In this document: positions 1-58,472 of the stretch, in pieces | Position numbering within the stretch: position 1 is the first letter of the stretch | Layout of the letters: each line of letters begins with the position of its first letter | From: an uncultured Gemmatimonadales bacterium | GTDB lineage: Bacteria > Gemmatimonadota > Gemmatimonadetes > Longimicrobiales > RSA9 | Reading direction: 5' to 3' | Assembly: GCA_963798085.1 (NCBI GenBank) | Contig: CAWCRS010000009.1 | Span: 233,889 to 297,888 of the forward strand | Length of the DNA: 64,000 bases | Made by a program: the position numbers and the translations under genes | Notes under the pieces: generated by a model | Told to the model about the DNA's origin: nothing | Database searches by the model: none | The model's input: only the letters and a program-made list of their open reading frames with translations

Positions 1-19
1 CGTGTTAGTAGTGGAAACT

Positions 20-48
20 GCGTTGCCCCGGCAACCAGCCCCGGCAAC
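20..48. repeat. partial copy of GC-rich intergenic repeat family A
   Basis: The sequence gcgttgccccggcaaccagccccggcaac lies just downstream of the permease stop at 65. The same CCCGrGCAACCAGCCCCrGCAAC core recurs at 10981-11004, 15435-15461, 25261-25308 and 58425-58447. Confidence 0.6.
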
Positions 49-64
49 ACAGTTCTCCAAGACA

Positions 65-2768
65 CTATTCCGACCTCAGCGTCCGCGCCGGTTCCGTGGC
101 AGCCGCGCGCCAGCCGGGGACCAGGCAGGCCAGTACAGCGACGATCAGCGTGCCCGCGAACACTGCTGTCAGCGTCGCCGGATCGCCCGGCTTCACGCCG
201 AAGAGCAGGGTGCGCAGCAGCCGGCTGGCGGCCAGCGCGCCCGCCACGCCCAGTACGGCGCCCCCGAGGCCCAGCCACACGCCCTCGCGCAGCACCATGA
301 GCAACACAGCGCGCGGGCGCGCGCCCAGCGCCAGCCGGATGCCGATCTCGCGCCGCCGGTGATTCACCGCCCACGAGAGAATGCCGTAAATGCCAATGGC
401 CGCAAGCGTGAGCGCCAGCCCGGCAAATACGGCAAGCACGAACATGACCAGGCGAGGCGGATCGGCGGGGGCGGCCAGCACGTGCTGCAGTGGCTGCGCA
501 TCCGCCAGCGGCAGCGTCGGATCGATGCGGTGGACTTCTGCGCTCAGTGTGCGCAGCAGCGAAGCGGCATCGCCCGCGCCCCGCACGTAGAGGTGCATTC
601 TGAGGAATGGGAACTGCCGGAACGTGAAGAAGACCGCTGGCTCGGGAGCGCTCGCTAATGACGTGTTCATGACGTCGCGCACCACACCGATGATCTGGTG
701 GTCGCGCGCGGGCTTGATGCGCTGACCCAGTGGGCCAATGGCGACCGTCACAATGTCGATGTGCCGGCCAATGGGGTCCTGATCCGCGAAATACCGCCTC
801 GCCAGCGCTTCGTTGATCACCACCACGGAGGGGCGCGTGCTGTCGTCCTGCGCCTCGAACGTGCGACCACGCACCAGCGGCACACGCAGCGCCTCGAACC
901 AGCCTTCATCCACCGTGTGAAACTGCGCTTCGGGTTCCTTGCCCTCCACGACGGGTTCACCCGGCAGCAGGAACGTCGAGCGCCAGCCCGGCTGCAGCGG
1001 CAGGAAATTCGAGGTGGCCGCCGCGCCGATCTGCGGCTGCTGGCGCAGATTCGTGAGCAGCGCGTCGTAGAAGCGCACTACCGCGCCCCAGTCCTTGTAG
1101 GTGCCGCCCGGCAGTGAGAGATCGGCTGTCGCCACCGAGGTCGGGATCGAGACCCGAATTCACGTGCAGCATGCTCGCCACGCTGCGGATCAGCAGCGAC
1201 GCGCCCGAGAGCAGCATCACGGCGAGCGCGACTTCCGCCGCCACCAGCAGACTGCGCATGCGGCCGCCCGCGCCGCCGCTGCCCGCGCCGCGCGAGGCGC
1301 GCAACGCGTTGCGCATGTGCGTGCGCGAGAGCACGAACGCGGGCGCCAGACCGAAGGCCAGCGCCGTCGCCACCGAGAGCAGCAGCGCGAAACCCAGCAC
1401 GCTCGCGTTGACACCCACCTGCTCCGCGCGCGGAATCTCGACCGGCGTCCACGCCAGGAAAGCGCGTACGCCGCCCACGGCCACCAGCGTGCCCAGCAGC
1501 GCGCCCGCCCCGGCCAGCAGCAGGCTCTCGATGAGCAGCTGGCCCAGCAGGCGCAGCCGGCTGGCGCCCAGCGCCGAGCGCACCGCCACCTCCGTGGTCC
1601 GCGCCGTGGCCCTCGCCAACAGCAGGTTAGCCACGTTGATGCACGCGATCAGCAGCAGCAGGCCGGCCGCGCCCAGCAGCACCAGCAGCGCCGGCCGGAA
1701 CACGCCCGTCACCTCGACGTCCAGCGGCGTGGCGCGCACGCCCCGGCCCAGGTTGCTGTCGCGATACTCCCGCTCCAGCCGCGTGCCCAGCGCCGCCAGC
1801 TCCGCGTTGGCCCGCTCCAGCGTCACGCCCGGCCGCAGCCGCGCCACTGCCTGCATGAAGTGCGCGTAGCGTGAGTGCGCGGCCAGATTCCAGCTCAGCC
1901 GCCGCCAGACGTCGGTCGTTTCGGGGAACTGGAAGCCCGGCGGCATCACGCCCACGATCGTGAAGGGCCGGCCGTTCAGCCGCACCGTGCGGCCCAGCAC
2001 CGTCTGCGCGCCCGCGAACCGCGTCCGCCAGAGGCGATGGCTGATCACCACTTCGCTCTCGTTGCCGTACAGCGTCGAATCGCGCGGGAACGCACGCCCC
2101 ACGGCCGGATGCACGCCCAGCACGTCGAAGAAATTCTCCGAAACCTCGATCGTCGAGACGCGGATGGGCTCGCCCGCGTCATCCGCCAGGTTGTACTCGG
2201 GACGCCACCACGCCGCGGCATCCTCGAACACGCGGTCCAGCCCGCGATAGTCGAGGAAATTCACCGGCGAGATCGGCTCGTGCGTCAGCGACTTCGGCCG
2301 GTTCGTCTCCCACAGCATCACCAGCCGGTCCGGCTGCGCGAACGGCAGCGGCCGCAGCACCACGCCCTCTACCACGCTGAACACCGCGGTTCCGGCTCCC
2401 GTGCCCAGACCCAGGGTCAACACCGCCGCCGCCGTGAACGCCGGTGTTCGCAGCAGCCCGCGCATGCCCTGTCGCGTGTCCCGCCACACCGCATCCAGCA
2501 GTCGATCCGCCATGCTCCGCCTCCGCCGTGGGTCCGGTTCGCGATTCCCGCCCGCCGCCAGCGCCGCCTGACGCGTCGCCCGGCGCAGCGCCAGCGGCCG
2601 CGATCGCAGCACCTCCAGCCAGTACCACGCGTGCGCCGCCCGCCGCCCGCGCTCCCGCAGCACCACCGCGTAGCGCTCCGCCAGGTCGCCCGTGAACGAC
2701 GCCCGCAACGACTCCGGCAGCCACTGCTCGATCAGCCATCGCGCCATGCCTGGCGGTGTGCCGCGCAC
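65..2768 (-). pseudogene. ADOP-type duplicated FtsX/MacB-like ABC permease, reading frame broken once near 1137-1150
   Basis: Overlapping minus-strand ORFs 957..2768 and 65..1135 together give one ~900-aa protein. It has a prefix helix ([14 protein letters not shown]), TM1, a MacB-like periplasmic domain and an FtsX 4-TM block, followed by a second periplasmic domain plus FtsX block ending EPARTLRSE. A GGAGG lies 8 nt upstream of the GTG at 2768. The junction ...[11 protein letters not shown] / [16 protein letters not shown] needs a 1-nt shift. Confidence 0.8.
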
Positions 2769-10739: not shown

Positions 10740-10904
10740 GGAGAATCCAGCCTCGTCTGATGGAAGAATGTCAGCGCAAGATAAAGCCGGCATCCGATCC
10801 GCACAGCAGGCGAGGGACACAACGCCTCCTGCGTTGCACCACTGCCAGCTGCTAGTGCCCGGTTATCAATCCGCGCAACGGAAAAGGGCCGGGACCCAAC
10901 TCGT

Positions 10905-11020
10905 CCCAGCCCCCGGCCCCAGCCCGCCGTTCAGTCCGATCCCGGCCCCAGCCCGAGCCCCAGCCCGCCGTTCATCCGTTCCCGAGCAACCAGCCCCAGC
11001 AACGTCTTCCAGCAGTTCAA
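10905..11020. repeat. GC-rich intergenic repeat family A copy (minus orientation)
   Basis: Two tandem CCCAGCCC..GCCGTTCA units (10905-10940 and 10941-10980) are followed by cccgagcaaccagccccagcaacg. The reverse complement aligns with 25110-25185 (GTTGCyGGGGCTGGTTGCyCGGGAACGrAT.AACGG...GCTGGGGCTCGGGCTGGGG). It abuts the moeZ stop codon. Confidence 0.7.
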
Positions 11021-12230
11021 TCAATACCGCGGCACCGCAGGATCGACCTCGTCGGACCATGCGAGGATCCCGCCCTTGAGGTTCCAGAGCCGGCGGAAGC
11101 CCGCGTCACGCAGCTGGCGGAGTGCCTTGCCGCTGCGCGCGCCCGAGCGGCAGTACAGCACGATTTCGTCGGCGCTGCTCAGCTCGTTCATGTGCTCGGG
11201 CAACGTGCCAAGCGGGATCAGTCGTGCGCCATACAGTCCGAGATTGCCGATTTCCCATTCGTGCGGCTCCCGCACATCGACGAGGACCAGCGGCTCCTCT
11301 CTGTCGAGGCGCTGCTTCAGCGTCGTCGCCGTGATCTCCGGGATAGTCTTCTGCTCGGCCTCTTCCGCCGCGTGTGCCTGCGGGATGCCGCAGAACTCAT
11401 CGTAGTCGATGAGGCCGGTGAGCGTGGGGTGCTCGCCGCAGATCGGGCAATTGGGATCCTTGCGCACCTTCAGCTCGCGGAACCGCATGGCCAGCGCATC
11501 GAACAGCAGCAGCCGGCCGATCATGGCGTTGCCGCGATCGATGATGAGCTTGATGCCCTCGAGCGCCTGCAGCGTACCGACGATGCCGGGCAGCACACCC
11601 AGCACGCCGCCCTCGGCGCAGCTGGGCACCAGTCCGGGCGGCGGCGGTTCGCGGAAGAGGCAGCGGTAGCACGGCCCCTCCTTCGCGTAGAATACGGAGA
11701 GCTGCCCCTCGAAGCGGAAAATCGAGCCGTAAACATTGGGTTTGCCCAGCAGCACACAGGCATCATTGACGAGGTACCGTGTGGGGAAATTGTCGGTGCC
11801 ATCGATCACGATATCCCAGGGCTCGAGGATCTCCAGCGCATTGTCGCTGCGCAGCGGCGTCTCATGCCCGATCACATCAATGTGCGGATTGATGTCGAGC
11901 AGCCGGTCGCGCGCGGATGCGATCTTGGGCCGGCCCACATCCTTCGTGCCGTGCAGCACCTGGCGCTGCAGGTTGGTTTCGTCGACGACATCGAAGTCCA
12001 CGATCCCAATGGTGCCCACACCCGCCGCGGCGAGGTAGAGACCCAGCGGCGAGCCCAGACCGCCCGCGCCCACGCACAGGACCTTCGCCGCCTTCAGCCG
12101 CTTCTGCCCCTCCATGCCCACTTCCGGCATGATCGAGATGGCGGCTGTAGCGGCGGATCTCCTCCGCCGACAATGCGACATCACCCGCGCGTGCCGCGAG
12201 CAATGCCGAGAGTAATGTCGCCTCTTCCAA
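11021..12230 (-). pseudogene. moeZ: MoeZ/MoeB-type E1-like adenylyltransferase with C-terminal rhodanese domain, frame broken near 12135
   Basis: ALSAEEIRRYSRHL (frame of ORF 11877..12419) joins IMPEVGMEGQKRLKAAKVLCVGAGGLGSPLGLYLAAAGVGTIGIVDFDVVDETNLQRQ... (ORF 11021..12331). It is colinear with mycobacterial MoeZ, including the CxxC pairs and a rhodanese domain with CRSGARS. The given sequence has an extra base in cat ctc g atc atg. Possible own start at TTG 12230, preceded by GGGGGA. No stop codon separates it from cysO upstream. Confidence 0.85.
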
Positions 12231-12248
12231 TGCGGTTCCCCCTGTTGC

Positions 12249-12520
12249 CCCGCCGGCAATGCTGGGCACAATGGTAATGGTGTCGCCCTCGTGGATGCGC
12301 GCAGCCGCGCCACCCAGCGCGCGCGCGTCATCCTCGTTGATGTACGCGTTCACGAAATTGCGCAGACTGCCGCGCTCATCATAGAGGTGCGGCCGGAGCG
12401 ATGGATGCTGCGTCACCAATGCTCCAGCGCCTCGCCCACCGTGGCCGCCGCAACACTGACCTCCTGTCCGCCGCCCGCGTACTGTTTCAGCGCCGCCGGT
12501 ATCCGTATGGTCACGCTCAT
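12249..12520 (-). pseudogene. cysO: CysO/MoaD/ThiS-like ubiquitin-fold sulfur carrier ending in Gly-Gly, frame broken near 12415
   Basis: MSVTIRIPAALKQYAGGGQEVSVAAATVGEALEH (ATG 12520) plus VTQHPSLRPHLYDERGSLRNFVNAYINEDDARALGGAAARIHEGDTITIVPSIAGG gives about 91 aa. The apparent stop (cat tgg tga) becomes cat ttg gtg if one T is restored. The GG codons are at 12254..12249, and the frame then runs on without a stop into moeZ. Confidence 0.8.
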
Positions 12521-12542
12521 TCTGACCCCGCAGTCTCGTGTC

Positions 12543-12968
12543 TCAGTCCTCGACGTGCATGACTTCTTCTGCGAACGACGACCGGTCCTCCGCCATGCGC
12601 CAGGCTCTGGTCTCCGCCGGCTCACCCTGACGCACGCTGACGATCAGGTAGGTATACCACGGCCACGAGTGCTCGAGGTCGAAAGCCGAAGGCGATGCCG
12701 GATGGTCGGGGTGCGAGTGGTAGAAGCCCACGATCTCGAGGTCATCACGCGCGGCCGCGCGCTCGATCTGCAGCATGGCATCGGGGGGAATCAGGTAGCG
12801 CCGCTCGCGCTCATCCGTGCGCGCGTTCGCCACACTCGCCACGCCCGCAATGCGGCGCATGGCGCCGTCCTGATCACGGCCCAGCAGCACGCCGCAGATC
12901 TCCTCGGGATAACCGTCCCTTGCGGCCTCACGAATGACCGCGAGATGCAGCTGCTCAATGCGTATCAA
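12543..12968 (-). CDS. mec: JAMM/MPN+ zinc metalloprotease (Mec+-like)
   Basis: 141 aa. Contains EICGVLLG and the JAMM motif FYHSHPDHPASPSAFD. Positioned between cysM and cysO, as in the mycobacterial mec-cysO-cysM cluster. Confidence 0.9.
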   Translation of the reverse strand: MIRIEQLHLAVIREAARDGYPEEICGVLLGRDQDGAMRRIAGVASVANARTDERERRYLIPPDAMLQIERAAARDDLEIVGFYHSHPDHPASPSAFDLEHSWPWYTYLIVSVRQGEPAETRAWRMAEDRSSFAEEVMHVED

Positions 12969-13027
12969 TCCAGGCTCCCGTCGCTCAGGGTCTCAGCAAA
13001 CCCGTATTCAGCAATCGGCCGGCCGCT

Positions 13028-13987
13028 TCATGCGCCCGGTCCGTTCTCGGCGCGCAGCCAGGCTTCCGAGAGGTAGCGCTCGCCCGAGTCCGGCAGCAGC
13101 GTGGCGATCACCGAATGCACCGGCGCTTCCGCGGCAACGCGCAGCGCGGCCACGACGTTGGCGCCGCCCGATACGCCCGCCAGCAGGCCCTCTTCGCGCG
13201 CCAGCCGACGGGCCATCCGCTGCGCATCCTCGGTCTCGATCTCCATCATCCGATCCGCCAGCGAAGGGTCGTAAATGCCCGGCACGATCGCCGTGGGCAT
13301 GTGCTTCAGACCTTCCAGCCCGTGAAACGACGAAGCCGGCTGCACCGCGATGAGCACGATGTCATCACGGTACATGCGCAGCCGGCGGCCCGTCCCCACG
13401 AAGGTGCCGCTCGTACCCAGGCCGGCCACGAAATGCGTGATGCGACCGCGCGTCTGCTGCCACAGCTCGTAACCCGTGCCCTCGAAATGCGACTGCACGT
13501 TCGCCCGATTGTTGTACTGGTCCGCGTAGAAGTAGCGCTCCGGAAACTCTGCGGCACGCCGTCTTGCCTCACGGATGGCGCCGTCCGATCCGAATTCCGC
13601 CGGCGTGATCACGAGCCGCGCGCCGTACGCCCGCAGCATCTGCTTGCGCTCCTCACTGGCTGTTGCCGGCAGGCAGATCTCGCAGCCGTAGCCGCGTTCC
13701 GCGCACAACATGGCGTATGCGATCCCGGTGTTACCCGAGCTGGCGTCGAGGAGTGTGCGACCGGCACGCAGCAATCCCTGCCGCTCGGCCGCACGCACGA
13801 TCGCCAGCGCCGGCCTCGCCTTCACACTGCCGCCGGGATTCTGCCCTTCCAGCTTGACCAGCACGCGCGCACCACCCGCCGGAGCCAGGCGCTGCAGCGG
13901 CACCAGCGGTGTGTGGCCAATGGCCGCCTCCAGCCGGCCAGCGGGCTCATCCAGCTCGGAGATGACGACGTGGGGCATGGATGACAT
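13028..13987 (-). CDS. cysM: PLP-dependent cysteine synthase (CysM/CysK family, probably CysO-thiocarboxylate dependent)
   Basis: 319 aa. Contains PLVPLQRL...KLEGQNPGGSVKARPAL (PLP lysine), SSGNTGIAYAM and GLGTSGTFVGTG. The assignment as the CysO-dependent form rests on operon context with mec, cysO and moeZ. Confidence 0.9.
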   Translation of the reverse strand: MSSMPHVVISELDEPAGRLEAAIGHTPLVPLQRLAPAGGARVLVKLEGQNPGGSVKARPALAIVRAAERQGLLRAGRTLLDASSGNTGIAYAMLCAERGYGCEICLPATASEERKQMLRAYGARLVITPAEFGSDGAIREARRRAAEFPERYFYADQYNNRANVQSHFEGTGYELWQQTRGRITHFVAGLGTSGTFVGTGRRLRMYRDDIVLIAVQPASSFHGLEGLKHMPTAIVPGIYDPSLADRMMEIETEDAQRMARRLAREEGLLAGVSGGANVVAALRVAAEAPVHSVIATLLPDSGERYLSEAWLRAENGPGA

Positions 13988-14604: not shown

Positions 14605-15247
14605 TCAGGCGGTCTTGCGCTCGAACGCGGCGGCTTTCACCTCGCTGCGCGACAGGCCCTTCTGCTTGCGCCACGCCATCTCGTCGGTGTAGGCGTCAGC
14701 GAAGAACTGCGCCACCTCGTCGGCCGGTGTCGCGATCATGGGGGCAGTGGGCCGCTCCCGCGTGAACCGCAGGTGCAGCGCGGCGGGTGTCAGTCCGGGT
14801 GCACGCACCTTCGTGCGTCCCGGATGCTCGTCCAGTCCGCCGCCCATGCGGGCATTCGTCACCGTGAAGCTGGTGCCGTCCTGGTAGCGGCAGCAGAATG
14901 TCGCAGAACACGCCCGCCTGCGGATGCTCGTAGACCACCGCGATCGCCGCCTCATCCTCTTTCACGAGAAAGTGCAGGGGCAGGTTCTTCATCTCGGGTA
15001 CGGTGAAGCTGCCCGCCGCCACGAAGCCTCGCCGCTGCAGGGATTCCACCGCCGACCTCGCCTCGGGCCTGGCGGGGGGGCCGCTGGCAGGATTCAGCGT
15101 GATCGCATCCGGCTGACTCGCCAGCGCCGCCTTGCCGATCGCATTCCCCGCCACCGCGACCACCAGCCTGTGGAACAGGTCCGGCCGCAGCTTGATGATG
15201 GCGTAGATGAGGCAGAGGATACCGATCCAGAGAAGATCGCGACTCAT
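14605..15247 (-). pseudogene. hypothetical membrane-anchored protein, frame broken near 14905
   Basis: MSRDLLWIGILCLIYAIIKL (N-terminal TM, ATG 15247) ...AVVYEHPQAGVF continues in another frame as ATFCCRYQDGTSFTVTNARMGGGLDEHPG...KAAAFERKTA (ORF 14605..14955). I recognise no family. Confidence 0.55.
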
Positions 15248-15410: not shown

Positions 15411-15485
15411 GCCAGCCCGACTCCCAGGGTCGTTCCCAGCAACCAGCCCGAGCCCCAGCCCAAGCGACGCCGTTGCAGTCCGCCT
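15411..15485. repeat. GC-rich intergenic repeat family A copy
   Basis: The sequence gccagcccgactcccagggtcgttcccagcaaccagcccgagccccagcccaagcgacgccgttgcag contains the CAACCAGCCC / GAGCCCCAGCCC / GCCGTTGCA modules shared with 10905-11020 and 25088-25308. Confidence 0.6.
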
Positions 15486-18605: not shown

Positions 18606-21180
18606 TCAGTGCATCGTGGTTTCCTGCGAGGGCAGCCGGGTCTCGGGGAACACGAGTGATCCCTTCTCCAGACTCGCGCCGCGCAGGGCCAGCGCCAGCA
18701 CCTCGCCCAGATCGCGCACCGTGTGGAACTTCATCTGCGCGTGCACCTCGCGCGGCAGATCATCGAGATACGCCTCGTTGTCCTTGGGCAGAATGATTTC
18801 GCGGATCCCGGCACGGTAGGCGCCGAGCACTTTCTCCTTCAGCCCGCCGATGGGCAGCACGCGACCGGTGAGCGTGATTTCGCCGGTCATGGAAACGTCG
18901 CTGCGCACGGGTCGCGCCGACAACGCGGACACGATCGCCGTCGCCATTGTCACGCCCGCCGACGGACCATCCTTGGGAATGGCGCCGGCCGGCACGTGAA
19001 TGTGCAGCTCGACTGTCCTTCAGATTCTCCTCCGGAATGCCCAGCCGGTCGTAATGCGTCTTGGCGTACGTAAGCGCCGCACGCGCGGACTCCTTCATCA
19101 CGTCGCCCAGCTGTCCGGTGAGAATCAGTCCATCGCGGCCCTTGGCCACGCTGGCTTCGACGAACATGATGTCACCGCCCACGGGCGTGTAGAACATGCC
19201 TGTTGCGACGCCCACCATGTCTTCGCCCGCCGCCCGCTCCGGATGGACCCTCGCGCGGCCCAGCAGGTCATCCATGTCAGCTGGTCGATCGTCACGTGCT
19301 CCGACTTCGCCGGCCGCAATGCGACGCGCCGCCTTGCGCGCGACCTTGCCCAGCTCGCGCTCGAGTTGGCGCACGCCGGCTTCGCGCGTGTACTCACTGA
19401 TCACGGTCTCCAGGCGCCGTGTCCGTGACATCGATCTGCTCCTCACCCAGCCCGTTCTCATCGCGCTGGCGAGGAATCAGGTAACGGCGTGCGATCTCCT
19501 TCTTCTCCAGCTCGGTGTAGCCGGTGAACTCGACCGTCTCCATGCGGTCGAGCAGCGGCGCCGGGATCTGATCCCGGTAGTTCGCCGTGGCAATGAACAG
19601 CACCTCGGACAGATCGAACGGCAGACCGAGGTAATGGTCGACGAACGAGTGGTTCTGCGCCGGATCGAGCACCTCGAGCAGTGCCGCCGAGGGATCGCCC
19701 TGCAGACTGACACCGAGCTTGTCGACCTCGTCGAGCAGGAACACGGGATTCTTGGTGGCTGCCTGGCGCAGGCCCTGGATGATGCGGCCCGGCATGGCAC
19801 CCACGTAGGTACGCCGGTGTCCGCGGATGTCGGCTTCATCGCGCGCGCCGCCCAGGGCGATGCGCACGTACTTGCGCGAGAGCGCGCGCGCAATCGACTT
19901 GGCGATGGATGTCTTGCCCACACCCGGCGGTCCCACGAAGAGCAGGATCGGTCCGCGACCCACCGCCTTCGCCTTCGCGCGCACCTCGCTCTTGTGCGAC
20001 CTCCTTCACGCCCTCGCCCTTGCCGAACTCGTCCAGCGGACCAATCTCCTCGGCGCCGCCGTTCTTCGAACTTCGGCGGCGCGACACCTGCGTCTCTTCC
20101 TCCACTTCGACCTTCAGCTTCTCCTCTTCCGCAGCCTCCCTCGCCGCCCGCTCCATCTGGCAGCTTGCGCACGGCCAGGAACTCGAGAATGCGATCCTTC
20201 ACATCTTCGAGACCGTAATGGTCCTCCTCGAGGATGCGCTCGGCTTCGGGCAGATCGATCTTGTCTTCCGTGCGCTCGTTCCAGGGCAGCTCGGCGACCA
20301 GCTCGAGATACGTACGCACCACCTGGTATTCCGCGGACTGCGGGTTCGTGCGCCGCAGTCTGCCCAACTCGCGCTCGATCTCGGTCCTGGCTTCGGGCGG
20401 AAGCTCGAGGGAGTGCAGGCGCTCCTCCAGCTCCTCGATCTCGGAGCCTTCGTCCTCTTCACCCAGCTCTTTCTGAATCGCCTTCATCTGTTCGCGCAGC
20501 ACCATCTCGCGCTGCTTCTCGCCCAGCTCTTCCTGCACCTTCTGCTGGATCTCCTGCTGCGCCTCGAGGCGCACGAGATCGCGCTCCACGCCGACGAGCA
20601 CGCGGCGCATGCGCTCGGGCACGGGAAACAGCTCGAGCAGCTGCTGCTTCTCGCCCGCGGGCATGTCCAGATAGAAGGCGACGAGGTCCGCGAACGCGCC
20701 CGGCTCCTCGACACCCTGTACGATCTGCGCCAGCGCCTCGCGGGGCATGCCGCGACGCCGGCCCAGCTCGACCGCGCGCTCACGCAGCTCGCGATCGAGT
20801 GCGATCACCGCAGGCTCGTACGGCTTCGACGGCTCCTGCGGATCGATGACCCAGATGTCGGCCTCGAGCATGGAATCACCCTTGCGCGTGTACGTAAGGG
20901 CCTTCGCACGCTTTTCGCCGTGAATCAGTACCTGGAGTCCGCCCGTCGAGCGCTGCACCTGCACCACGCGCACGATCACACCCATTTCGTACAGCACTTC
21001 GGGAACGGCCTCGTCTACGTTCTCCCGCTGGCAGGCCGCGAACAGCAGGCGGTCGCCATCGAGCACTTTTTCGATTGCTTCCAGCGTGCCCGGCCGGCCG
21101 GCACTGATAGGAAGCGCCACGCCGGGGAACACGACGGTCTCCCGCATGGGGAGCACGGGCATTTTCAGTCGCTCAGCCAT
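18606..21180 (-). pseudogene. lon: ATP-dependent Lon protease, frame broken at about 20157, 19995, 19415 and 19013, plus a compensated pair at 19276-19308
   Basis: Five consecutive minus-strand ORF pieces. (1) LON N-domain MPVLPMRETVVFPGVALPI... (2) A charged insert. (3) AAA+ core [16 protein letters not shown]...FLLDEVDKL. (4) [19 protein letters not shown]...LTGQLGDVMKESA. (5) Protease domain [23 protein letters not shown]...[20 protein letters not shown]. All motifs are intact, and only the frame changes. Confidence 0.9.
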
Positions 21181-21498
21181 TGTTCTTCTTCAGTTGAAAG
21201 TCCGGTCCCGCCGACACGGCAGTATCCGGATGAGTCTCGACAGCAGGGAGCAGGAATCTTGCCATCCGCGGTGGCTTTTCTTTCACGCGTGTTATTGCTG
21301 GAGATGCACGCGGCGAGGCGCGAAGCCGGGTCGCCGCGGGTTCGAGCGTGAGGCTGGCTGCGCGTCGCGCACGGTGCCGAATGCCGGCCGATTTGGCAAG
21401 GATCGCCGCGCGACTGTCTGCGCGGCAGGCGAGCAGCGGCTCGCGATTCGTGCGGCCGTGAATCGTGACGCAGGAGCGGTCCGTGCAACCGCGCCGCG

Positions 21499-22266
21499 TC
21501 AGCGGATCAGATCGCCGATGCGACTCCAGCGGATGTGATTGAAGAGCGGAATCGGACCCAGTGCGTTACGGTCGTAGGAGAAGTAGAGCACGACGGCCTT
21601 GCCCTTCATCCACGACGGATCGACGAAGCCCCAGTAGCGCGAGTCGAGGCTCTCATCGCGGTTGTCGCCCATGACGAAGTACTTCCCCAGCGGCACGACG
21701 AGCGGGCCCCAGTTGTCGCGCGTGGGCTGATACGTGCGCGGATCGATGGTGTCCGCGAGGTAGCTCGACTGCCAGCCCATCCAGTTGGGTGCGGGTGCGT
21801 CGCCCGTCGGATCGGTGTGCCGCACATAGGGCTCGATTTGAGCCACGCCGTCGATCGATAACACACCGTCCTTCATCGACAGCGTGTCGCCCGGCATGCC
21901 GATGAGTCGCTTCACCAGATCGATCGGCTCGTGGTGCCCGCGGAACACGATGACATCACCGCGCTGCGGATGCGTGTAGCCGGGCAGATGCATGTGCGTG
22001 CCGGGAATGGTCGCGCCGTACGCCGACTTGCTGAGCACGAGGAAGTCACCCACCAGCAGGGTGTTTTCCATCGAACCCGATGTGATGGTGAAGGTCTGGA
22101 TCAGGAAGGTGCGCAGCACGAGGAACAGCACGAAGCCCATCGCCAGCGACTTGGTCCACTCCCACGCCACGTGCCCAATGGTTTGCCGTGCCCCCGCCGC
22201 GGGCGCCGGCTGTCCGGCCGACATTCTGCGTGCCGTGCTGACCCGCCTGCCGCGATTCGTCGCCAT
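21499..22266 (-). CDS. lepB: signal peptidase I
   Basis: Start taken at MATNRGRR (22266). Contains a TM segment, the catalytic-Ser box ITSGSMENTLLVGD, RGDVIVFR, KRLIGMPGD and YFVMGDNRDESLDSRYWGFV. Confidence 0.9.
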   Translation of the reverse strand: MATNRGRRVSTARRMSAGQPAPAAGARQTIGHVAWEWTKSLAMGFVLFLVLRTFLIQTFTITSGSMENTLLVGDFLVLSKSAYGATIPGTHMHLPGYTHPQRGDVIVFRGHHEPIDLVKRLIGMPGDTLSMKDGVLSIDGVAQIEPYVRHTDPTGDAPAPNWMGWQSSYLADTIDPRTYQPTRDNWGPLVVPLGKYFVMGDNRDESLDSRYWGFVDPSWMKGKAVVLYFSYDRNALGPIPLFNHIRWSRIGDLIR

Positions 22267-22465
22267 CCCGTGGCCTCGATCTGCTCTGGAACATGGTCGT
22301 ACGGTCCGCGACGAGCGGGCGCACGCGAAACGATACGCCATAATGCAGATGATGTTTCAAACGCGCGACGCGCAGCGCGATGCTCGGGGCGGGTTGCCTG
22401 CAATCGCGTGCGGGATGGCCAGGGCGGCGAATACGCGTGAATCGTTCCTGGCCTCGGGGGAAAAG

Positions 22466-22775
22466 GGTCAGAGGAGGGGGAGCGTTCAGGGGTCGAGCGC
22501 GGACAAGGGCACCCGTTCAGGGGAGAGGGCGGGGAGCTGTGGCCAGTTCAAATGAACCGTCCTGCTCTCGAGGATTCCGATTTACCCGAACGCAGCCGTG
22601 AGCTGTCGCTGCTTCTCGCATTGTCCGACACGGCGTGAGCAGAGGCGCGCGGGTGACGACTGCCGGCGGCGACGGAATCCGAGCGGGCGGAAAGTGCGGC
22701 CAGCGCACCCACCCCGACCCCTCAACGGGTGCCCGTGCCCGCGCTCGACCTCTGAACCCGACCGCTCCCCTGACC
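22466..22775. repeat. large imperfect inverted repeat (58-nt arms, ~194-nt loop)
   Basis: Arm 22466-22523 (ggtcagaggagggggagcgttcaggggtcgagcgcggacaagggcacccgttcagggg) matches the reverse complement of 22718-22775 at 49 of 58 positions by hand alignment. It lies in a 1.07-kb gene-free interval. Confidence 0.75.
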
Positions 22776-22822
22776 CCGGCCCCTGCGCAGCCGCCACCCA
22801 CCACCATCCAGAAGCCTGCCCG

Positions 22823-22863
22823 AAAAAAACGGGAGGCACCGCCGCGCCTGCGACGATGCCTCC
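22823..22863 (-). terminator. canonical intrinsic terminator with no annotated gene upstream
   Basis: The minus strand reads GGAGGCATCGTCG-CAGGCG-CGGCGGTGCCTCC, a 13-bp stem including two G.U pairs, followed by C G TTTTTTT. It is one of only two hairpin-plus-T-tract terminators I could find in the window. Confidence 0.7.
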
Positions 22864-23130
22864 ATCCCCCTTCTCCCCCACCAACTGTGCCGCATCATGC
22901 GGCGTGCCCACCATTTCCGAACCGAGGGGACACCGTCCTCGGGTGTCCGGCCTCATCACCGGCACGGCGCGCCGTTCTGGTCGGCGCCGCTCGCATGGAG
23001 CGTCTGTCCGTGTCGCCAGGCCCGCGTCGGCGAGGCATACTCCCGTTGGCTCGTGTCCGGACGCGGGTCATTACAAGACCGGTGCCGCTTCCTGCGTGAC
23101 CTGCGGCCAGACCCGGCGCGGGTCGCCTCC
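22864..23130 (-). ncRNA. candidate unannotated structured transcript ending at the 22823-22863 terminator
   Basis: This call is inferred from the orphan terminator, the absence of a plausible ORF, an AT-rich island at 23131-23170 that could hold its promoter, and several local hairpins (GGACACC..GGTGTCC, GCCGCAT.ATGCGGC, CCCGCGTC..GACGCGGG). The 5' end is unknown, and I could not match it to any RNA family by eye. Confidence 0.3.
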
Positions 23131-23170
23131 AGTATTTGTTAAGTAATTTGTATCAAACGATTTAACTGCA
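23131..23170. promoter_or_regulatory. AT-rich island, possible divergent promoter/operator region (hutU side and minus-strand transcript side)
   Basis: The sequence agtatttgttaagtaatttgtatcaaacgatttaactgca is far more AT-rich than its flanks. It lies 243 nt upstream of the hutU ATG and contains TTTG/TTGT motifs and a TTGATA on the minus strand. Confidence 0.3.
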
Positions 23171-23412
23171 TGCGACAACACGGATCCCGGGGCTGCTATG
23201 GCGATGCCGGAGCGGTTGCCAGAGCCTGCCGGCGGGCTTCGCGGCTGGCGTCGTGCAAATACCGTTGCAAAGCGCCATGAAATCCCGGTCCGGGTCCGGG
23301 TCAGCGCGGCACGGTGCCGCGGCGGCGCAGGCAACCGGCCGGGCGGCGGCGTTGCGATTCGGGGAGAGGCCAGCCATTCTCCGCCAACACCTCCTGCCGA
23401 GGAAGAACCGTC

Positions 23413-25074
<1,662 letters not shown>

Positions 25075-25087
25075 CCGTGACCCGACT

Positions 25088-25308
25088 GCGTTGCTGGTTG
25101 CTCGTTGCCGGGGCTGGTTGCCCGGGAACGAATTGAACGGATCCGGAGGCGTTGCTGGGGCTGGGGCTCGGGCTGGGGCTGGGGATTGCATCGTGCGCTT
25201 CGAACACGTGGTTAGGTTACCGTCCGGGCCCCAGAAGCGCGGGTTGATCTGATGAATCCCTTCCCGGGCAACCAGCCCCAGCAACCAGCAACCAGCAACC
25301 AGCAACGC
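25088..25308. repeat. inverted-repeat-bounded GC-rich element (family A) filling the hutU-hutF spacer
   Basis: The left arm gcgttgctggttgctcgttgccggggctggttgcccgggaa (25088-25128) matches the reverse complement of the right arm ttcccgggcaaccagccccagcaaccagcaaccagcaaccagcaacgc (25261-25308). Internally there is a (GCTGGG)n run at 25153-25185, and a (GCAACCA)n run lies in the right arm. Confidence 0.8.
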
Positions 25309-25340
25309 TGTCCGACAACGCTGAAAAGGCGAGACCCCGA

Positions 25341-47839: not shown

Positions 47840-50258
47840 ATGAACGCGCTGCTGAAGGACCTGCGCTACGGTGCGCGCATGATCCGCAAGACGCCGGGCG
47901 CATCGCTCATCGCGGTCATTGCGCTGGCGCTGGGCATCGGCCTGACCACGCTGATGTTCAGCATCGTGTACGGCGCGCTCATCCGGGGCCTGCCCTTCGA
48001 GCACAGTGAACGCCTGGTCAACATCAACCGCGTGCGCAAGGATCGCGGCAACGTGGGCATTTTCGCGCCCGACTTCGCCGACTGGAGCGCACAGCAGCGC
48101 TCCTTCGAGGAGCTGGGCGCCTACGCCGGCACATCCATCACGCTGTCGAGCGGCGACGCGCCGCGGCGCGTGAGAGGCGCGTACGTGTCAGCCAGCCTGT
48201 TCCGCGTGCTGCGCGTGCATCCACTGATGGGTCGCGTGTTCACGGATGAAGACGACCGGTCCGGCTCACCTGACATGCTGATCATCGGCTACGACGTGTG
48301 GCAGAGTGATTTCGCCGGCGATCCCGGCATCATCGGCAGGTCCGTGCGCATGAACGGCATCGATGCCGTGATCGTCGGCGTCATGCCGCGCGGTTTCGGC
48401 TTCCCCGACACGCAGAGCGCGTGGGTGCCATTGCGCCTGGATCCGGCGCGGACGGAGCGGGGCAGGGGCATGTCGGTGGGCGTCGTGGGCCGGCTGCGGG
48501 CCGCGGTGAGCATGGCGCAGGCGACGGCGGACATGGAGGCCATCGCGCAGCGCCAGGCGAGCGCGTATCCGGTCACGAACCAGGACATCACCGTCAGACT
48601 GCAGACCTCGCAGCAGGCGAGACTGGGCCGGGACGAGCGCACCGTGCTCTACACGATGCTGGGCGCCGTGCTGTTCGTGCTGCTCATTGCCTGCGCCAAT
48701 GTGGCGAATCTGCTGATCGGCAGGGCCATGGTGCGCACGCGCGAGATCGGCGTGCGCACCGCGCTGGGCGCATTCGAAACTGCGTGTGATGAGCCAGTTC
48801 CTCACGGAATCGCTGGCGCTGGCCATCGCCGGTGCCGCCATCGGTGTGGTGATCGCGGCGGTCGGCATCCGCGCGTTCAATGGCGCGATTGCAGGCGTCA
48901 ATCCACCGTTCTGGCTGAAGATCGCGCTGGACACGCCGTCACTGCTCTGTGCCAGCGCCGCCACGGTGCTGGCCACGCTGGCGGCGGGCTCCATTCCCGC
49001 CGTGCAGGCGGCCACCGCGAACACGCACGACATCCTGAAGGATGAGTCGCGCGGCAGCTCGAGCTTCAGACTGGGCAACCTGAGCCGCGTCCTGGTGATG
49101 GCGGAAATGGCGCTGTCGGTCGGGCTGCTCGTAGGTGCCGGCCTCATGATCAAGAGCGTGGTCAAACTGGAAACAATCGATCTCGGCTTCGACGCAAGGC
49201 ACACGCTGAATGCACGCATGATCATGTCCGACACCATCTACAACGACCGCGAGCGCCGCCTGCGCCTGGCCACGGACCTGCTGACACGCGTGTCAGCAAT
49301 GCCGGGTGTCACCGCGGCCACGCTCACCACGTCCGCGCCGGGCATGGGTGGCGGCAGCAACCTCTTCGCACTGGAGGGCGTCACCTACGCCACCGATCGC
49401 GACTACCCGTCGGCGCCCGGCGCCACTATCGCGCCCGGGTTCTTCGCCACGCTGGGCTTCAGGGTCATCGGTGGCCGCGAATTCACGGCGGACGATCGCG
49501 ACGGCACGCTGCCCGTTGTGGTCGTCAATCAGTCGTTCGAGCGACGCTGGTTCCCGGGGCAGAGCGCGCTGGGCAAGCGCCTGCGCTTCGGCACCAACAT
49601 CGCCGGCAACCCGAACCCGTGGATGACGATCGTGGGCGTGGTCCCCGATCTCTATGTCACTGCCGTGGACGAACAGGTGCACGAAGGTCTGTACCGGCCG
49701 ATTGCGCAGGCGGGCCCGCGCGGCCTCACGGTGCTGGCACTGACGCGCGCGAAGCCGGCATCGCTCGTGAATGCGCTGCGCGGCGTCGTCGCCGATGTGG
49801 ATCCCAACCTGGCGCTGGATCAGCTGGGTTCGCTCGAGGAAGTCATCCAGCAGGAGAACTGGTACTACGCCGTGTTCGGTGCGCTGTTCGTCGCGTTCGG
49901 CGGCGCTGCTCTCTTCCTTGCCTCGATCGGGCTGTACGGCGTCATGTCGTTCGCCGTGAGCCGGCGGCGGCGCGAGATGGGTGTGCGCATGGCCGTGGGT
50001 GCGGACGCGCGCGACGTGGTGCGCCTGGTCCTGCGACAGGGCATGACACAAACCGCCATCGGCCTCATTGTGGGAACCGCTTTTGCGCTTTTCGTGTCGA
50101 AACTGCTGGCGGCCATCCTCTTCCAGGTGCAGCCCCGCGATCCGGTGATCTTCGCGTCCATCATTGCAGTACTGCTGCTCACCGCCGTGCTGGCGTGCTG
50201 GATCCCGGCCCTGCGCGCGGCCCGCGTGGACCCCCTGGAAGCTCTGCGCTACGAGTAG
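47840..50258 (+). pseudogene. ADOP-type duplicated FtsX/MacB-like ABC permease, frame broken near 48773
   Basis: ORF 47840..49045 (MNALLKDLRYGARMIRKTPGASLIAVIALALGIGLTT...ACANVANLLIGRAMVRTREIGVRTALGA) continues as SKLRVMSQFLTESLALAIAG... in ORF 48786..50258, ending LEALRYE. One extra base lies in gca t tcg. Confidence 0.85.
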
Positions 50259-50404
50259 CCCGGCCCGCCCGTGCGCGCTACCGCTGTCGCGCGCGGTTGC
50301 CCGCAGGGTGGCGGGGGCGTACGTTGCAACGCCCCGTCGTTGCGATTGTCGGCGCGGGTTACAGCAAATGTCTCCAGCGCGAGAATCGAGAACATCCACA
50401 CGGC

Positions 50405-51124
50405 ATGCTGAGCATCCGCGAGGTGTCACGCATCCTGGACGTGTCCGAGCGCACGGTGCAGCGCTGGATCCGCTCCGGTGATCTGCCCGCCAGCCGGCAG
50501 CGCGAACAGGCACTGATCAATCCCGTCGACCTGCTGGAGTGGGCTTCCGCGCGGGGCGTCGAGCTGTCGCCCGAGCTGAGCCAGCAGTGGGCCGTGCCCG
50601 AGCTGCCCTCGCTCTACGACGCCCTTGCGGCAGGCGGCATTCACACGGACGTACCGGGGCACAGCAAGGACACGGTGCTGCGCGCCGTGGCCCGGCGCCT
50701 GCCGCTGCGCAACGAGGACGAGAAGGAGTTCGTGCTGCAGGGCATGCTGGCCCGCGAAGCGCTCGGTTCCACTGCGATCGGCGGCGGTGTCGCCATTCCC
50801 CACGTGCGCAACCCCATCATCCTGCACGTCACCCGACCCGCCGTGATGCTATCGTTCCTGGAGAACGAGATCGATTTCGGCGCCCTGGATGGGCAGCCGG
50901 TCACGGTCCTGTTCACAGTCGTCAGTCCCACCGTGCGCCTGCACCTGCACCTGCTGTCGCGCCTCGGTTTCGTGCTGCACGATGCCGATGTGCGGCGGTT
51001 GCTGGGTGAGCGTGCCTCACCCGCCGCCGTGCTGGAACGCGTGCGCTGTGTGGAGGCGGCACTGCCCGGCCGGGATGGACTGGACGGCCACGTCTCCACC
51101 AACGGGCCGGCACAGGCGAGCTAA
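50405..51124 (+). CDS. HTH (excisionase/MerR-like) plus PTS EIIA(Ntr/fructose-type) domain protein
   Basis: ATG at 50405. MLSIREVSRILDVSERTVQRWIRSGDLPA (helix-turn-helix). EIIA_2 domain with STAIGGGVAIPHVR (phospho-His region) and VTVLFTVVSP. The stop TAA overlaps the next ATG as TAATG. Confidence 0.8.
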   Translation: MLSIREVSRILDVSERTVQRWIRSGDLPASRQREQALINPVDLLEWASARGVELSPELSQQWAVPELPSLYDALAAGGIHTDVPGHSKDTVLRAVARRLPLRNEDEKEFVLQGMLAREALGSTAIGGGVAIPHVRNPIILHVTRPAVMLSFLENEIDFGALDGQPVTVLFTVVSPTVRLHLHLLSRLGFVLHDADVRRLLGERASPAAVLERVRCVEAALPGRDGLDGHVSTNGPAQAS

Positions 51125-56080: not shown

Positions 56081-57611
56081 GCACCCGCCGCACGCTCCGG
56101 CTGCACAACGGTCAGGCGTTCGATACCGCCCTGCTGCCCGAACTGTCGATCGCCGAATTCACCGGGTTCGTGACCAGCCGTTGTCGCGAAGGCGAAAGGC
56201 TGGTGACGCTCTTCGGCTGGCAGGAACCCGATCCCGCGAACGACCGGGCGCGCACCCGGCTCGCCGTGGTGCTGGCCAGCGATCAGAGCGGACAGCTGGA
56301 AGTGCTGTGCTGCACGGTTGCAGGGCATCAGTACACATCGCTCACGCCCGACGTGGCCGCAGCCGCACGCTTCGAGCGCGAGATCCGCGAGCAGCTGGGC
56401 ATCGTGCCAGTGGACCACCCCTGGCTCAAACCACTGCGCAGCCAGCCACCGCTATATCCCGGTCTCCGGCCCCTGCACAATGCGGCGGTCGAGATCGGCG
56501 TCGACTATCCCTTCTTCCGCATGGAAGGCGAGGCAATACACGAGGTCGCGGTAGGCCCGGTGCACGCGGGCATCATCGAGCCCGGACACTTCCGCTTCCA
56601 GTGCTACGGCGAGCGCGTGTTCCACCTCGAGATAATGCTGGGTTATCAGCACCGCGGCATCGAGCGCGCACTGCTGGGCGGTCCGCAGCGCAATTCCGCC
56701 GTGCAGATCGAGGAGCTGGCCGGCGACACCACCGTGGGCCACAGCATGGCGTGGGCCCAGGCGCTGGAAGCGCTGGCCGCGTGCGACGTGCCCCTGCGCG
56801 CCCAGGCGCTGCGCGCGCTCGCGCTCGAACTCGAGCGCCTGGCCAACCACACCGGTGACATCGGCGCACTCGCCGGCAATGTCGCGTTCCTGCCCACGGC
56901 GGCCTACTGCGGGCGCATTCGCGGCAGTTTCCTCAACATGACGGCGCTGCTGTGCGGGAACCGTTTCGGTCGCGGCTTCATCCGGCCCGGCGGCGTCGCC
57001 TTCGATATCGATGGCGGAGATGTGCTGCAGCTGCAGGCTGCGCTCAATGCGGCGAGCCACGATCTGCACATTGCCGTCGAGCTGTTCTTCGAGACCGGAT
57101 CGGTCGTCGACCGGCTCGAAGGCACCGGACCGGTGACGCCCGAGCTGTGTCAGGAGCTGGGTGTCGTGGGTCCGGCCGCCCGCGCCTGCGGCATCGCCCG
57201 CGACGTGCGCCACGACCACGCCCACGGCATGTACCGCCTGGCGCACATTCCCACCGCCACCGTGGAAGGCGGTGACGTGTACGCGCGTGCCATGGTGCGC
57301 TGGCTGGAGATGCAGCGCTCGCTGGCATTCATTCGCGAGCTGCTCGCGGGCTTGCCACCCGGACCGTCCAGCGTGCCCATGCCGGGTCTGCTGCCCAATC
57401 TGGGCACCATTTCCCTTGTCGAAGCCTGGCGCGGTGAGATCGCGCACATCGCCATGACCAATGCACACGGCCGCTTTCTGCGCTACAAGATCACCGACCC
57501 CTCGTTTCACAACTGGCCGGCACTCGAAATCGCAATGCGCGGCCAGCAGATTCGGACTTTCCGCTCTGCAACAAGAGCTTCAATCTTTCCTATTCGGGGG
57601 CGGATCTTTGA
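56077..57611 (+). pseudogene. HyfG/HycE-like fused NuoC-NuoD large subunit lacking all four NiFe cysteine ligands, frame broken near 57552
   Basis: NuoD-type core VGPVHAGIIEPGHFRF...LGYQHRGIE. Where hydrogenases have R-x-C-G-x-C-x3-H, this protein has E-L-A-G-D-T-T-V-G-H. After GQQI the frame must shift by 1 nt to read SDFPLCNKSFNLSYSGADL-stop (TGA 57609-57611), which aligns with D.P....S.DPCxSCxDR with Cys replaced by Ser and Gly. The ATG overlaps the previous stop (ATGA). Confidence 0.85.
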
Positions 57612-57619
57612 ATGCGGAA

Positions 57620-57727
57620 TGCGTTGGAGTTGCTGAGGCTGGGGCTGGGGCTCGGGCTGGGGACGAATTGAAATGCGTTGCCTGGGGGCTGGTTGCTGGG
57701 GCTGGTTGCTCGGGAACGGCAGCAACG
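57620..57727. repeat. family A GC-rich repeat block (left boundary of the intra-operon spacer)
   Basis: The sequence gcgttggagttgctgaggctggggctggggctcgggctggggacgaattgaaatgcgttgcctgggggctggttgctggggctggttgctcgggaacggcagcaacgg shares its modules and the GAATTGAA linker with 25110-25185. Confidence 0.75.
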
Positions 57728-58337
57728 GATACAGCGTGCAGCTGCCCTGGTAGGGCTGGCACGGGGGACGGACTGCATGCGTTTGCGGCGGCTGGTTGCT
57801 CCACGGCATCAACGGAAACCGCCCGCACGGAGTTGTTCGGGATGCTGTCTGGGAATGGCGCGGCAGGCTGCCGCCGTCTACGCCATCGACGTTCGCACGA
57901 AGCGGCGACCAGAGCCATGCTGCCCATGGAAAGCACTGGATTGAGGCTCGACAGCAGCGGGTGGTCTTGCGACAGGCGCCGGGCCGCGGGGTGGGACCGG
58001 GGCGGAAATCGAGACGCGTCGCGGGCGAAGGGTGGGACAACATTGGCTTGCACTGCAGGGCCGTTGCCCGGGAGCACCCGGGAACATCGTGGAGGTGGCG
58101 GACGCGACCTGCGCACGCCTGCACCGAATTCTGTGTTAGTACGATGATCGAGGTTCAGGCCGTGGATCGGTGGCCCGCGCACGCCGGGCAGACCCTGAAC
58201 GCGTCGAGGGGGAACCGTTTGAGAAAGGTCGAACCGCGGCGCCGGTTTTCTTCCGTCGGGGCGCGACAGCGCGTGCGCGACACCCGCCTCACGGCAGCCG
58301 TGCGCAATCGTGCAGAGGGCGCGGGAGCCGCGCTGTT

Positions 58338-58462
58338 TCCCAGCCCCGGTCCCGAGGTCAGCCCCGGCCCCGGCGCCAGTGCCAGCCCCAGCCCGGGGCA
58401 GGCCGTCCAGTCCGTCTTGCCATACCCGGGCAACCAGCCCCGGCAACGAGTTCCAGCAACGA
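58338..58462. repeat. family A GC-rich repeat block, inverted (right boundary of the intra-operon spacer)
   Basis: ...cccagccccggtcccgaggtcagccccggccccggcgccagtgccagccccagcccgggg...cccgggcaaccagccccggcaacgagttccagcaacgac. Its reverse complement, gttgctggaactcgttgccggggctggttgcccggg, is nearly identical to 25091-25126. Confidence 0.75.
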
Positions 58463-58472
58463 CGCCGGCTCC

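Follow-up and report, generated by a model that had tools for sequence, protein, structure and literature searches.

What is the GC-rich, repeat-laden DNA that separates hutU from hutF in a bacterium of the Longimicrobiales (Gemmatimonadota), and why do pieces of it recur between other genes nearby? We analysed a 64-kb stretch of one contig (CAWCRS010000009.1, positions 233,889 to 297,888; the window), of ~68% G+C, in which a preliminary description had pointed to a dispersed family of intergenic elements, here called family A, at positions 25088-25308 and several other loci. All of these loci are present at or near the positions given there, and the sequence at 25088-25308 reads as described. 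We think it probable that family A is a lineage-specific, non-autonomous, non-coding mosaic repeat of the Longimicrobiales, comparable with miniature inverted-repeat transposable elements (MITEs) and bacterial interspersed mosaic elements (BIMEs), whose copies are mobilised by an enzyme from another part of the genome and remodelled by slippage. The family is new, although the kind of element, akin to repetitive extragenic palindromes (REPs), BIMEs and MITEs, is a familiar one.

A family of composite intergenic repeats

When all blocks are oriented on the G-rich strand for alignment, they resolve into a building block of ~40 nt with an AT-richer head and a G-rich body, of which there are two types, A and B. 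The head is GGAYTGAACGGCG- or ACTGCG-like, with examples reading GGACTGAACGGCG, GGATGAACGGCG, GAATTGAAATGCG and GAACTGTG. Body A, GTTGCYGGGGCTGGTTGCYCGGG, consists of two 13-nt sub-repeats and can be expanded by GTTGCTG heptamers; body B, GCTGGGGCTCGGGCTGGGG, is a hexamer run with a fixed CTC interruption, and GTTGCYGGGGCTGG is a repeat that forms arrays in the family. The runs and motifs listed in the preliminary description are real, but the linker that it lists with them is better seen as the head of the next unit. A and B are variant forms of a single unit and follow one another in any order: A alone at locus 1, A-B-B at locus 2, a B/A hybrid at locus 3, A-B followed by a unique core and an inverted A at locus 4 (the hutU-hutF spacer), and, in the spacer between the hyfG-like and hyfHI genes of a hyf-like cluster, B-A with a degenerate A from 57612 onwards and A-B on the minus strand at 58330-58457. 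Like the unit order, the number of 6-, 7- and 13-nt sub-repeats varies from block to block.

Is this truly a family, or the product of a GC-rich sequence prone to slippage? The 23-mer GTTGCYGGGGCTGGTTGCYCGGG, allowing up to three mismatches, is found six times in the window (26-48(-), 10981-11003(-), 25104-25126(+), 25263-25285(-), 57692-57714(+) and 58425-58447(-)) against 0.00 expected; GGCTGGTTGCYSGG, allowing one mismatch, is found ten times against 0.32 expected, and the 19-mer GGGCTGGGGCTCGGGCTGG has four exact matches against 0.00 expected, so that these motifs go well beyond chance for this base composition. The 23-mer is identical in five copies and the 19-mer, with its CTC interruption, in four, and the shared interruption speaks for copies taken from one source and against slippage at each locus separately. 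Tandem Repeats Finder reports the runs GCTGGG x5.2 and GCAACCA x5.7, along with periods of 13 nt and, at 10912-11000, of 41 nt; the assembly contains several frameshifts, and the exact lengths of G-runs in the repeats may be imprecise. The copies total six blocks spread over five intergenic regions. Profiles (nhmmer) of the A and B units match just these loci within the window, and neither they nor BLAST of the six blocks found any additional copy there.

Some observations would nevertheless be expected if there were no homologous family at all, and the loci reflected independent microsatellite expansions in GC-rich spacers, base composition or faulty assembly. The bodies consist of tandem sub-repeats of 6, 7 and 13 nt, the assembly carries many indel errors, loose versions of the B motif match coding DNA above shuffle expectation, and the head motif GGAYTGAACGGCG alone is not enriched in the window (nine matches, 6.1 expected); nor is GTGTTAGTA, which adjoins two copies. 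We regard this explanation as essentially refuted, since long composite motifs with an expectation of zero are identical between loci, the same interrupted hexamer run and the same heads are shared, and the family recurs, with the same architecture, outside the window. Scanning metagenomes with the 23-mer brought up true relatives in the soil contigs L008, L009 and L003/L006, and because these are independent Illumina contigs, errors in the assembly of the window cannot be what created the family. Contig L009, also from the Longimicrobiales, repeats the architecture of locus 4 in a copy of ~256 bp, with 48-nt arms that are 85% complementary, lie 128 nt apart and are built of 13-nt sub-repeats in GTTTC/GTTGC variants. 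The same 23-mer gave a single chance match among genome contigs, in a metagenome-assembled genome (MAG) of the Dehalococcoidia, and a 17-mer scan of viral contigs gave 40 matches, all of them chance occurrences of a single motif or coding sequence.

The preliminary description recognised no described family here, and our searches agree with it: Rfam gave no match at gathering thresholds for the whole window, and none at E<=1 for 57500-58600, and literature searches on the motifs and on repeats in Gemmatimonadota or Longimicrobia found nothing relevant. To our knowledge, no interspersed repeat family has previously been described for Gemmatimonadota or Longimicrobiales. One further sequence may be mentioned here. 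In contigs L004, L005 and L007 (at ~6120, 6170 and 970), from an organism of 56% G+C, 2.5 tandem copies of the 13-mer GTTGCCGGGGCTG occupy one orthologous site; it is accompanied by nothing else of the family, and may be a distant relative or a case of convergence.

Position beside stop codons and probable insertion

Where do the copies lie? All are outside open reading frames (ORFs) that have Pfam support or a coding signal in third-position G+C, as judged from Pfam scans of ~60 ORFs, in a window whose non-coding share is ~1/6 by crude gene calls; their restriction to the space between genes, as originally proposed, therefore holds. Four blocks have an upstream gene on their G-rich strand, and each of them starts 0-7 nt past the stop codon of that gene, with the G-rich strand as sense. 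These genes are those for a MacB/FtsX permease, a ThiF/MoeB protein, hutU and a hyfG-like protein (stop codons in the table). The last of these, a hyfG/NuoCD-like gene, is frameshifted near its end (57540-57636), where TTT has apparently become TT at ~57551. Its ortholog in L050 ends in RGQQISDFPLCNKSFNLSYAGHDL and a stop codon, a C-terminus that the window reads only after a 1-nt shift at ~57551; the conserved residues SDFPLCNKSFNLSYSGADL, followed by the stop codon at 57609-57611, are read in the +2 frame only. The stop-codon rule is not universal, because locus 3 and the copy in L009 adjoin gene starts, in divergent promoter spacers.

The orientation of the copies has a second aspect. The G-rich strand is the minus strand for all copies before ~22 kb and the plus strand for the first copy of each locus after 23 kb, a switch that coincides with a change of sign in the GC skew, and both bodies begin with GCTGG, as does the Chi sequence of Escherichia coli, GCTGGTGG. 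A strand-polar chromosomal signal, Chi-like or KOPS-like, with its G-rich strand co-oriented with replication, might produce such a pattern. That it did so here is hardly credible: gene orientation flips at the same place, so that transcription explains the pattern equally well, two loci contain inverted copies, and composite elements of ~100 nt at six loci in 64 kb are unlike 8-mer signals, which are also found inside genes.

Were the elements inserted into pre-existing spacers? Comparison with related contigs argues that they were. Between hutU and hutF the window has 266 bp, whereas L002 has 27 bp and a JGI contig 54 bp; between hyfG and hyfHI the window has 861 bp and L050-L052 have 12 bp. 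The sigma-thrC spacer measures 406 bp in L009; in eight contigs that encode a ThrC 90% identical to the L009 protein it measures 205 bp, and both flanks can be aligned. Spacers that are short and empty in relatives at three orthologous sites imply that the elements are insertions, in keeping with the earlier suggestion of a non-autonomous element. For the hyf-like cluster the point of insertion can be placed, since the window retains, immediately ahead of the ATG, the sequence ACGACGCCG, a recognisable form of the L050 spacer GGGACGACGCCG, implying that ~846 bp were added right at the hyfG-like stop codon. The gene starts that close the two window spacers are each supported by a database protein, P0001 (100% identical) for hutF and P0121 for hyfHI at 58473. 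In 14 loci from relatives (L002 and L050-L062, together ~110 kb and partly redundant), which were retrieved via their proteins and not via the motif, the family motifs have no match, compared with ten in the 64-kb window, and the nhmmer unit profiles likewise found no copies in these ~110 kb of related Longimicrobiales loci. Such a patchy distribution is expected of mobile DNA. A further suggestion, that the element is active or recently active, does not carry over to the window genome; the single comparison that speaks for it, at 90% protein identity, concerns the metagenomic relative.

The main alternative is that family A is a cis-acting motif selected by the host and is not mobile DNA, its copies having been spread and homogenised by recombination or gene conversion. 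Its arrays of 13- and 6-nt G-rich repeats could then be bound by a nucleoid or regulatory protein, act as a G-quadruplex (G4) switch, or serve as an mRNA-stabilising or antisense-terminating signal. Selection of this kind would suit core motifs that are very exactly conserved while the units around them are rearranged, as well as their consistent position and orientation relative to stop codons and their presence in divergent promoter spacers (L009 and locus 3), together with the concentration of the window's short-loop G4 motifs in B bodies and the part that one copy, at locus 2, plays in a terminator-like stem. We nevertheless consider it unlikely, since the orthologous operons of relatives function with motif-free spacers of 12-54 bp, relatives at 90% identity lack the element at the same site (sigma-thrC), the flanking genes (hut, hyf-like, MoeB and MacB) are functionally unrelated, and the order and number of units are highly variable, with locus 3 unstructured.

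On the reading that we favour, the copies of family A would have spread by transposition, or by being copied and inserted, through the action in trans of an enzyme whose gene lies at another place in the genome, and slippage would have remodelled the arms. Selection would retain those operon insertions that lie beside the stop codon and so spare the downstream ribosome-binding site, and the surviving insertions would present G-rich (Rho-resistant) or base-paired RNA, avoiding Rho-dependent polarity. In transcripts, the stems and possibly the G4-prone B bodies may act as 3'-end barriers or attenuators, uncoupling the expression of neighbouring genes.

Predicted structures and known repeat families

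The preliminary description held that the elements can form long GC-rich hairpins. This is so only where two A arms are inverted relative to each other. The hutU-hutF spacer (25075-25340) is predicted to fold into a single long stem (-145.3 kcal/mol and z -6.0 as RNA; z -5.5 as DNA) in which the two inverted A arms give a stem of 40-50 bp; the inverted arms reported at 25088-25308 are borne out, with 72-nt arms that are 81% complementary and 28-nt core arms at 89%. The L009 element folds similarly (-141.7 kcal/mol, z -4.9). At locus 1 the prediction is a short hairpin (RNA, -31.5 kcal/mol, z -4.2) with a 12-17-bp stem, followed by CACUACUAAC and no U-tract, and loci 1 and 4 are the only ones in the window with significant structure. 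The sole stable stem at locus 2, after which comes UUUU, is formed by the last B unit with non-repeat sequence; the predicted fold of locus 3 does not surpass that of shuffled sequence (z -0.18), and the hyf spacer (881 nt, 57600-58480) is weakly structured (z -1.8). Terminal inverted repeats are present at 25082-25314 and in L009, and in imperfect form at 57612-58457; loci 1-3, considered as arrays, lack them. All four short-loop G4 motifs of the window fall within B bodies, against 0.34 expected, and GGGGCTGGGGCTCGGGCTGGGG is a family sequence predicted to be G4-prone.

Could the family be a set of terminators, as was also suggested? The terminator-like stem at the 3' end of locus 2 (consensus terminator scan match 10900-10888) is its only case, and a role as general intrinsic terminator is rejected, the U-tract stem being confined to that site. 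Mycobacterial interspersed repetitive units (MIRUs) are also rejected. These have small ORFs that overlap the flanking stop and start codons and couple translation of the neighbouring genes. Family A shares with them tandem units of 40-100 bp that lie between the genes of operons, follow the direction of transcription and begin at the stop codon of the gene before them, but it has no MIRU-like coupling ORF in the hutU-hutF, moeB-amidohydrolase and hyfG-hyfHI spacers, each of which contains stops in all three frames.

The closest parallels in architecture are the BIME and REP sequences of E. coli and other Proteobacteria, which are likewise short, non-coding, intergenic repeats, often placed just past stop codons and inside operons. 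Like BIMEs, family A is an extragenic mosaic of a few modules and linkers in variable combinations, a likeness of architecture only and not of homology, and, as with REPs and BIMEs, some copies stand alone while others form inverted pairs with stable stem-loops. As defining features of REPs, Di Nocera et al. (PMC3733652) list a unit that is palindromic and a tetranucleotide tag, GTAG or CGTC, at one end. The units of family A, in contrast, are G-rich direct repeats and not self-folding palindromes of 20-40 nt; GTAG is found near two loci only, once contributed by the hutU stop codon, and CGTC in 2-3 of 11 heads, the others having CGTT. The units are also mostly direct rather than alternating, the bodies are microsatellite-like and G-rich, and there is no sequence similarity. 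A classical REP is therefore rejected, as the units are not palindromic and carry no conserved GTAG tag.

A broader version of this idea, that family A is a true REP/REPIN family mobilised by a REP-associated tyrosine transposase (RAYT, of IS200/IS605 type) elsewhere in the genome, has in its favour the intergenic position near gene 3' ends, the occurrence of single copies and of inverted pairs that form hairpins, and the patchy, lineage-specific distribution, and REP-like families are known from many phyla (PMC12306157, PMC3733652). It is nonetheless improbable, given the unit structure and tags just described, inverted arms that lie 128-700 nt apart, unlike those of a compact REPIN, and the lack of any Y1 transposase among the ~60 ORFs of the window.

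MITEs such as Correia, ERIC and Nezha resemble the locus 4 element (229 bp) and the L009 element (~256 bp), which have terminal inverted repeats of 41-48 nt and a non-coding core, and MITEs too show presence or absence of insertions between related genomes (here three empty sites) and a patchy distribution across lineages. They differ in that family A has no detected target-site duplication, in that many of its copies are solo units or direct arrays without inverted repeats, and in that the inverted repeats are themselves tandem arrays of 7- and 13-nt sub-repeats, variable in number. The BOX elements of Streptococcus pneumoniae and the RIME elements of rhizobia are also modular, with variable module number and order, intergenic, structure-forming and lineage-specific, but their sequences are unrelated to family A, and the order of BOX modules is fixed as A-(B)n-C, unlike the free order of A and B here. 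In filamentous cyanobacteria, heptamer arrays of the short tandemly repeated repetitive (STRR) type can form intergenic hairpins, including in the spacer between the hydrogenase genes hupS and hupL, for which a role in transcript stability or termination has been proposed (PMC2670836). Family A resembles these in its tandem heptamer runs in intergenic DNA and their capacity to form hairpins, yet its runs are embedded in a conserved composite unit of ~40 nt with a head, and long identical motifs are shared between copies.

These parallels suggest what the elements might do. The effect of REPs on mRNA 3' ends is exemplified by malE-malF. Protection of mRNA 3' ends or attenuation is established for REP elements (PMC3733652), and by analogy with the REP/BIME sequences of E. 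coli and with the proposal for the hupS-hupL STRR array, family A would likely serve as an RNA 3'-end barrier or attenuator between co-transcribed genes.

Several points weigh against our interpretation of family A as a MITE/BIME-like insertion with a role in transcripts. No convincing direct repeat that could be a target-site duplication is present at the boundaries of locus 4, the hyf insertion or the L009 element, where the divergence of the relatives blurs the comparison, and no transposase, RAYT or integrase was found among the ~60 window ORFs scanned or in the neighbourhood of the metagenomic copies. Terminal inverted repeats are missing from half of the blocks (loci 2 and 3 and each hyf block alone). 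The two hyf blocks, which the preliminary description listed together (57620-57727 with 58338-58462), are B-A on the plus strand and A-B on the minus strand and are not mirror images, and our interpretation does not account for the ~520-bp centre between them. At the hutU-hutF and hyf sites the sequences do not separate insertion from an ancient gain, or from loss in the relatives, because the nearest relatives are only ~74% identical in protein; HutF and the HyfHI-like protein are matched by 100%-identical database proteins from a contig of 345,868 bp, and their named homologues come from MAGs of Longimicrobiales/Gemmatimonadota, the nearest of them at that level. Adjacency to stop codons is partly forced, given that the ancestral spacers are only 12-50 nt long. 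Finally, a GC-rich stem with a U-tract is found in one of six blocks, at the 3' end of locus 2, with none in 57400-58600, and the role in RNA is one that we infer.

Might family A be more than a familiar element in a new sequence? It could represent a new type of mobile element, in which tandem arrays of 13-nt G-rich sub-repeats form the ends and are bound by a recombinase, insertion is directed to positions just past stop codons, and the B module has a function as a G4. Such insertion would target, for example, sites of transcription or translation termination or single-stranded DNA, and the B module would be a G4-based device for regulation or targeting. We think this decidedly unlikely, and regard family A as a commonplace type of genome feature in unfamiliar form that introduces no new principle. 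Its interest lies elsewhere. Gemmatimonadota, and especially Longimicrobiales, are abundant soil bacteria with almost no genetics, and the family offers a strain-typing marker and is a known hazard in genome assembly. It also supplies insertions of 230-850 bp inside apparently intact operons (hut and hyf-like) and, directly past stop codons, a natural collection of strong hairpins and of canonical G4 motifs. Should the mobilising enzyme be found, the picture drawn from REP/RAYT systems and MITEs would extend to a new phylum, with unusual tandem-repeat ends.

Mapped features and other observations

The positions of the individual units are collected in the table. The centre of the hyf insertion gave only noise in BLASTN and TBLASTX searches, with no similarity elsewhere, and within the 861-bp hyf spacer no internal ORF has a Pfam match and there is no Rfam match.

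Table. Units of family A and adjoining features in the 64-kb window (positions count from the first nucleotide of the window)
Feature	Positions	Strand	Context and evidence
Locus 1, solo A unit	17..60	-	Reads TGGAGAACTGTGTTGCCGGGGCTGGTTGCCGGGGCAACGCAGTTTCCA; 23-mer match; nhmmer A 60-20, E 1.3e-7; starts 4 nt past the stop codon (65-67) of a MacB/FtsX permease gene (FtsX Pfam match)
Locus 2, A-B-B array of three head-to-tail ~40-nt units	10898..11022	-	41-nt period; 23-mer match; nhmmer A 11022-10975, B 10976-10935 and 10936-10898; two short-loop G4 motifs; directly past the TGA stop (11021-11023) of a ThiF/MoeB-rhodanese gene, with a same-strand amidohydrolase gene downstream (Pfam)
Non-repeat sequence pairing with the last B unit of locus 2	10863..10900	-	GC-rich stem, then CTTTTCC (predicted fold)
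Locus 3, hybrid B/A unit	15431..15480	-	GGACTGCAACGGCGTCGCTTGGGCTGGGGCTCGGGCTGGTTGCTGGGAACG; nhmmer B match, E 5e-8; flanking genes poorly defined
Locus 4, left A arm	25082..25132	+	hutU-hutF element; 3-4 GTTGCYG/13-nt sub-repeats; nhmmer E 5e-13; starts 7 nt past the hutU stop codon (25072-25074)
Locus 4, B unit	25140..25189	+	(GCTGGG)5 run; short-loop G4 motif 25157-25178
Locus 4, unique core	25190..25256	.	BLAST of 25127-25262 matches other loci over the B part only
Locus 4, right A arm, inverted	25257..25314	-	(GCAACCA)5.7; ends 26 nt before the hutF GTG start at 25341
Hyf spacer, B-A block	57612..57720	+	G4 motif 57641-57662; 23-mer, nhmmer and 19-mer matches; directly past the corrected hyfG-like TGA stop (57609-57611; ortholog comparison)
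Hyf spacer, degenerate A unit	57760..57812	+	GGACTGCATGCGTTTGCGGCGGCTGGTTGCTCCACGG; 89-92% identical to the A unit (repeat finding)
Centre of the ~846-bp hyf insertion	57813..58329	.	Unique, apparently non-coding; weak codon-position GC signal
Hyf spacer, A-B block facing the hyfHI start	58330..58457	-	nhmmer A match 58466-58419; 23-mer match
Ancestral spacer remnant	58458-58466		ACGACGCCG; hyf insertion ends just before it; matches the relative's spacer

Among the neighbouring genes, those at 11021-13987(-), which have the A-B-B repeat at their 3' end, encode in a row a ThiF/MoeB-rhodanese protein, a JAB/Mov34 protein and a PALP (cysteine synthase-like) protein, an arrangement that we take to resemble a sulfur-carrier-protein cysteine biosynthesis cluster of the CysO/MoeZ/Mec/CysM type. 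A regulator gene with HTH_17 and PTS_EIIA_2 domains lies 3' of hyfHI in L050-L052 (6693-7403 in L050) and at 49619-51124 in the window, upstream of the hyf-like cluster, implying that the hyf locus has been rearranged in addition to receiving the 846-bp insertion.

Other repeats are seen in the relatives. In L061, a Longimicrobiales MAG, a 1.3-kb spacer contains three tandem arrays at 19100-19790 (units of 50, 54 and 52 nt, 87-91% matches) that are unrelated in sequence to family A, though their heads are AACGG-rich too, and its sigma-thrC spacer has a different direct repeat of 32 nt (at 9368 and 9440). Repeat-laden spacers may be common in Longimicrobiales.

Several genes in the window are split into overlapping ORFs: the Lon protease gene, 18606-21180(-), into three ORFs with the Lon_C domain divided between two of them, the MacB-type permease genes at 65-2768(-) and 47840-50258(+) into two pieces each, and a small gene at 14605-15247(-). 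This suggests about one indel per 10 kb, as an error of long-read assembly; widespread pseudogenes are less likely. The cumulative GC skew has its minimum at ~20-22 kb, where gene orientation switches from minus to plus, and a non-coding stretch of ~1 kb follows at 22357-23400, with a short AT-rich patch at 23125-23175. The region 20000-23400 may contain a replication origin or may simply hold divergent promoters; we saw no dnaA gene in the window. Finally, at 63601-63687 the 24-nt tandem repeat GCGGCCACCGCCACCCTCACCTCT is present in three copies (97% matches) inside an ORF, 62864-63688, that has no Pfam match, and it is probably a coding repeat.

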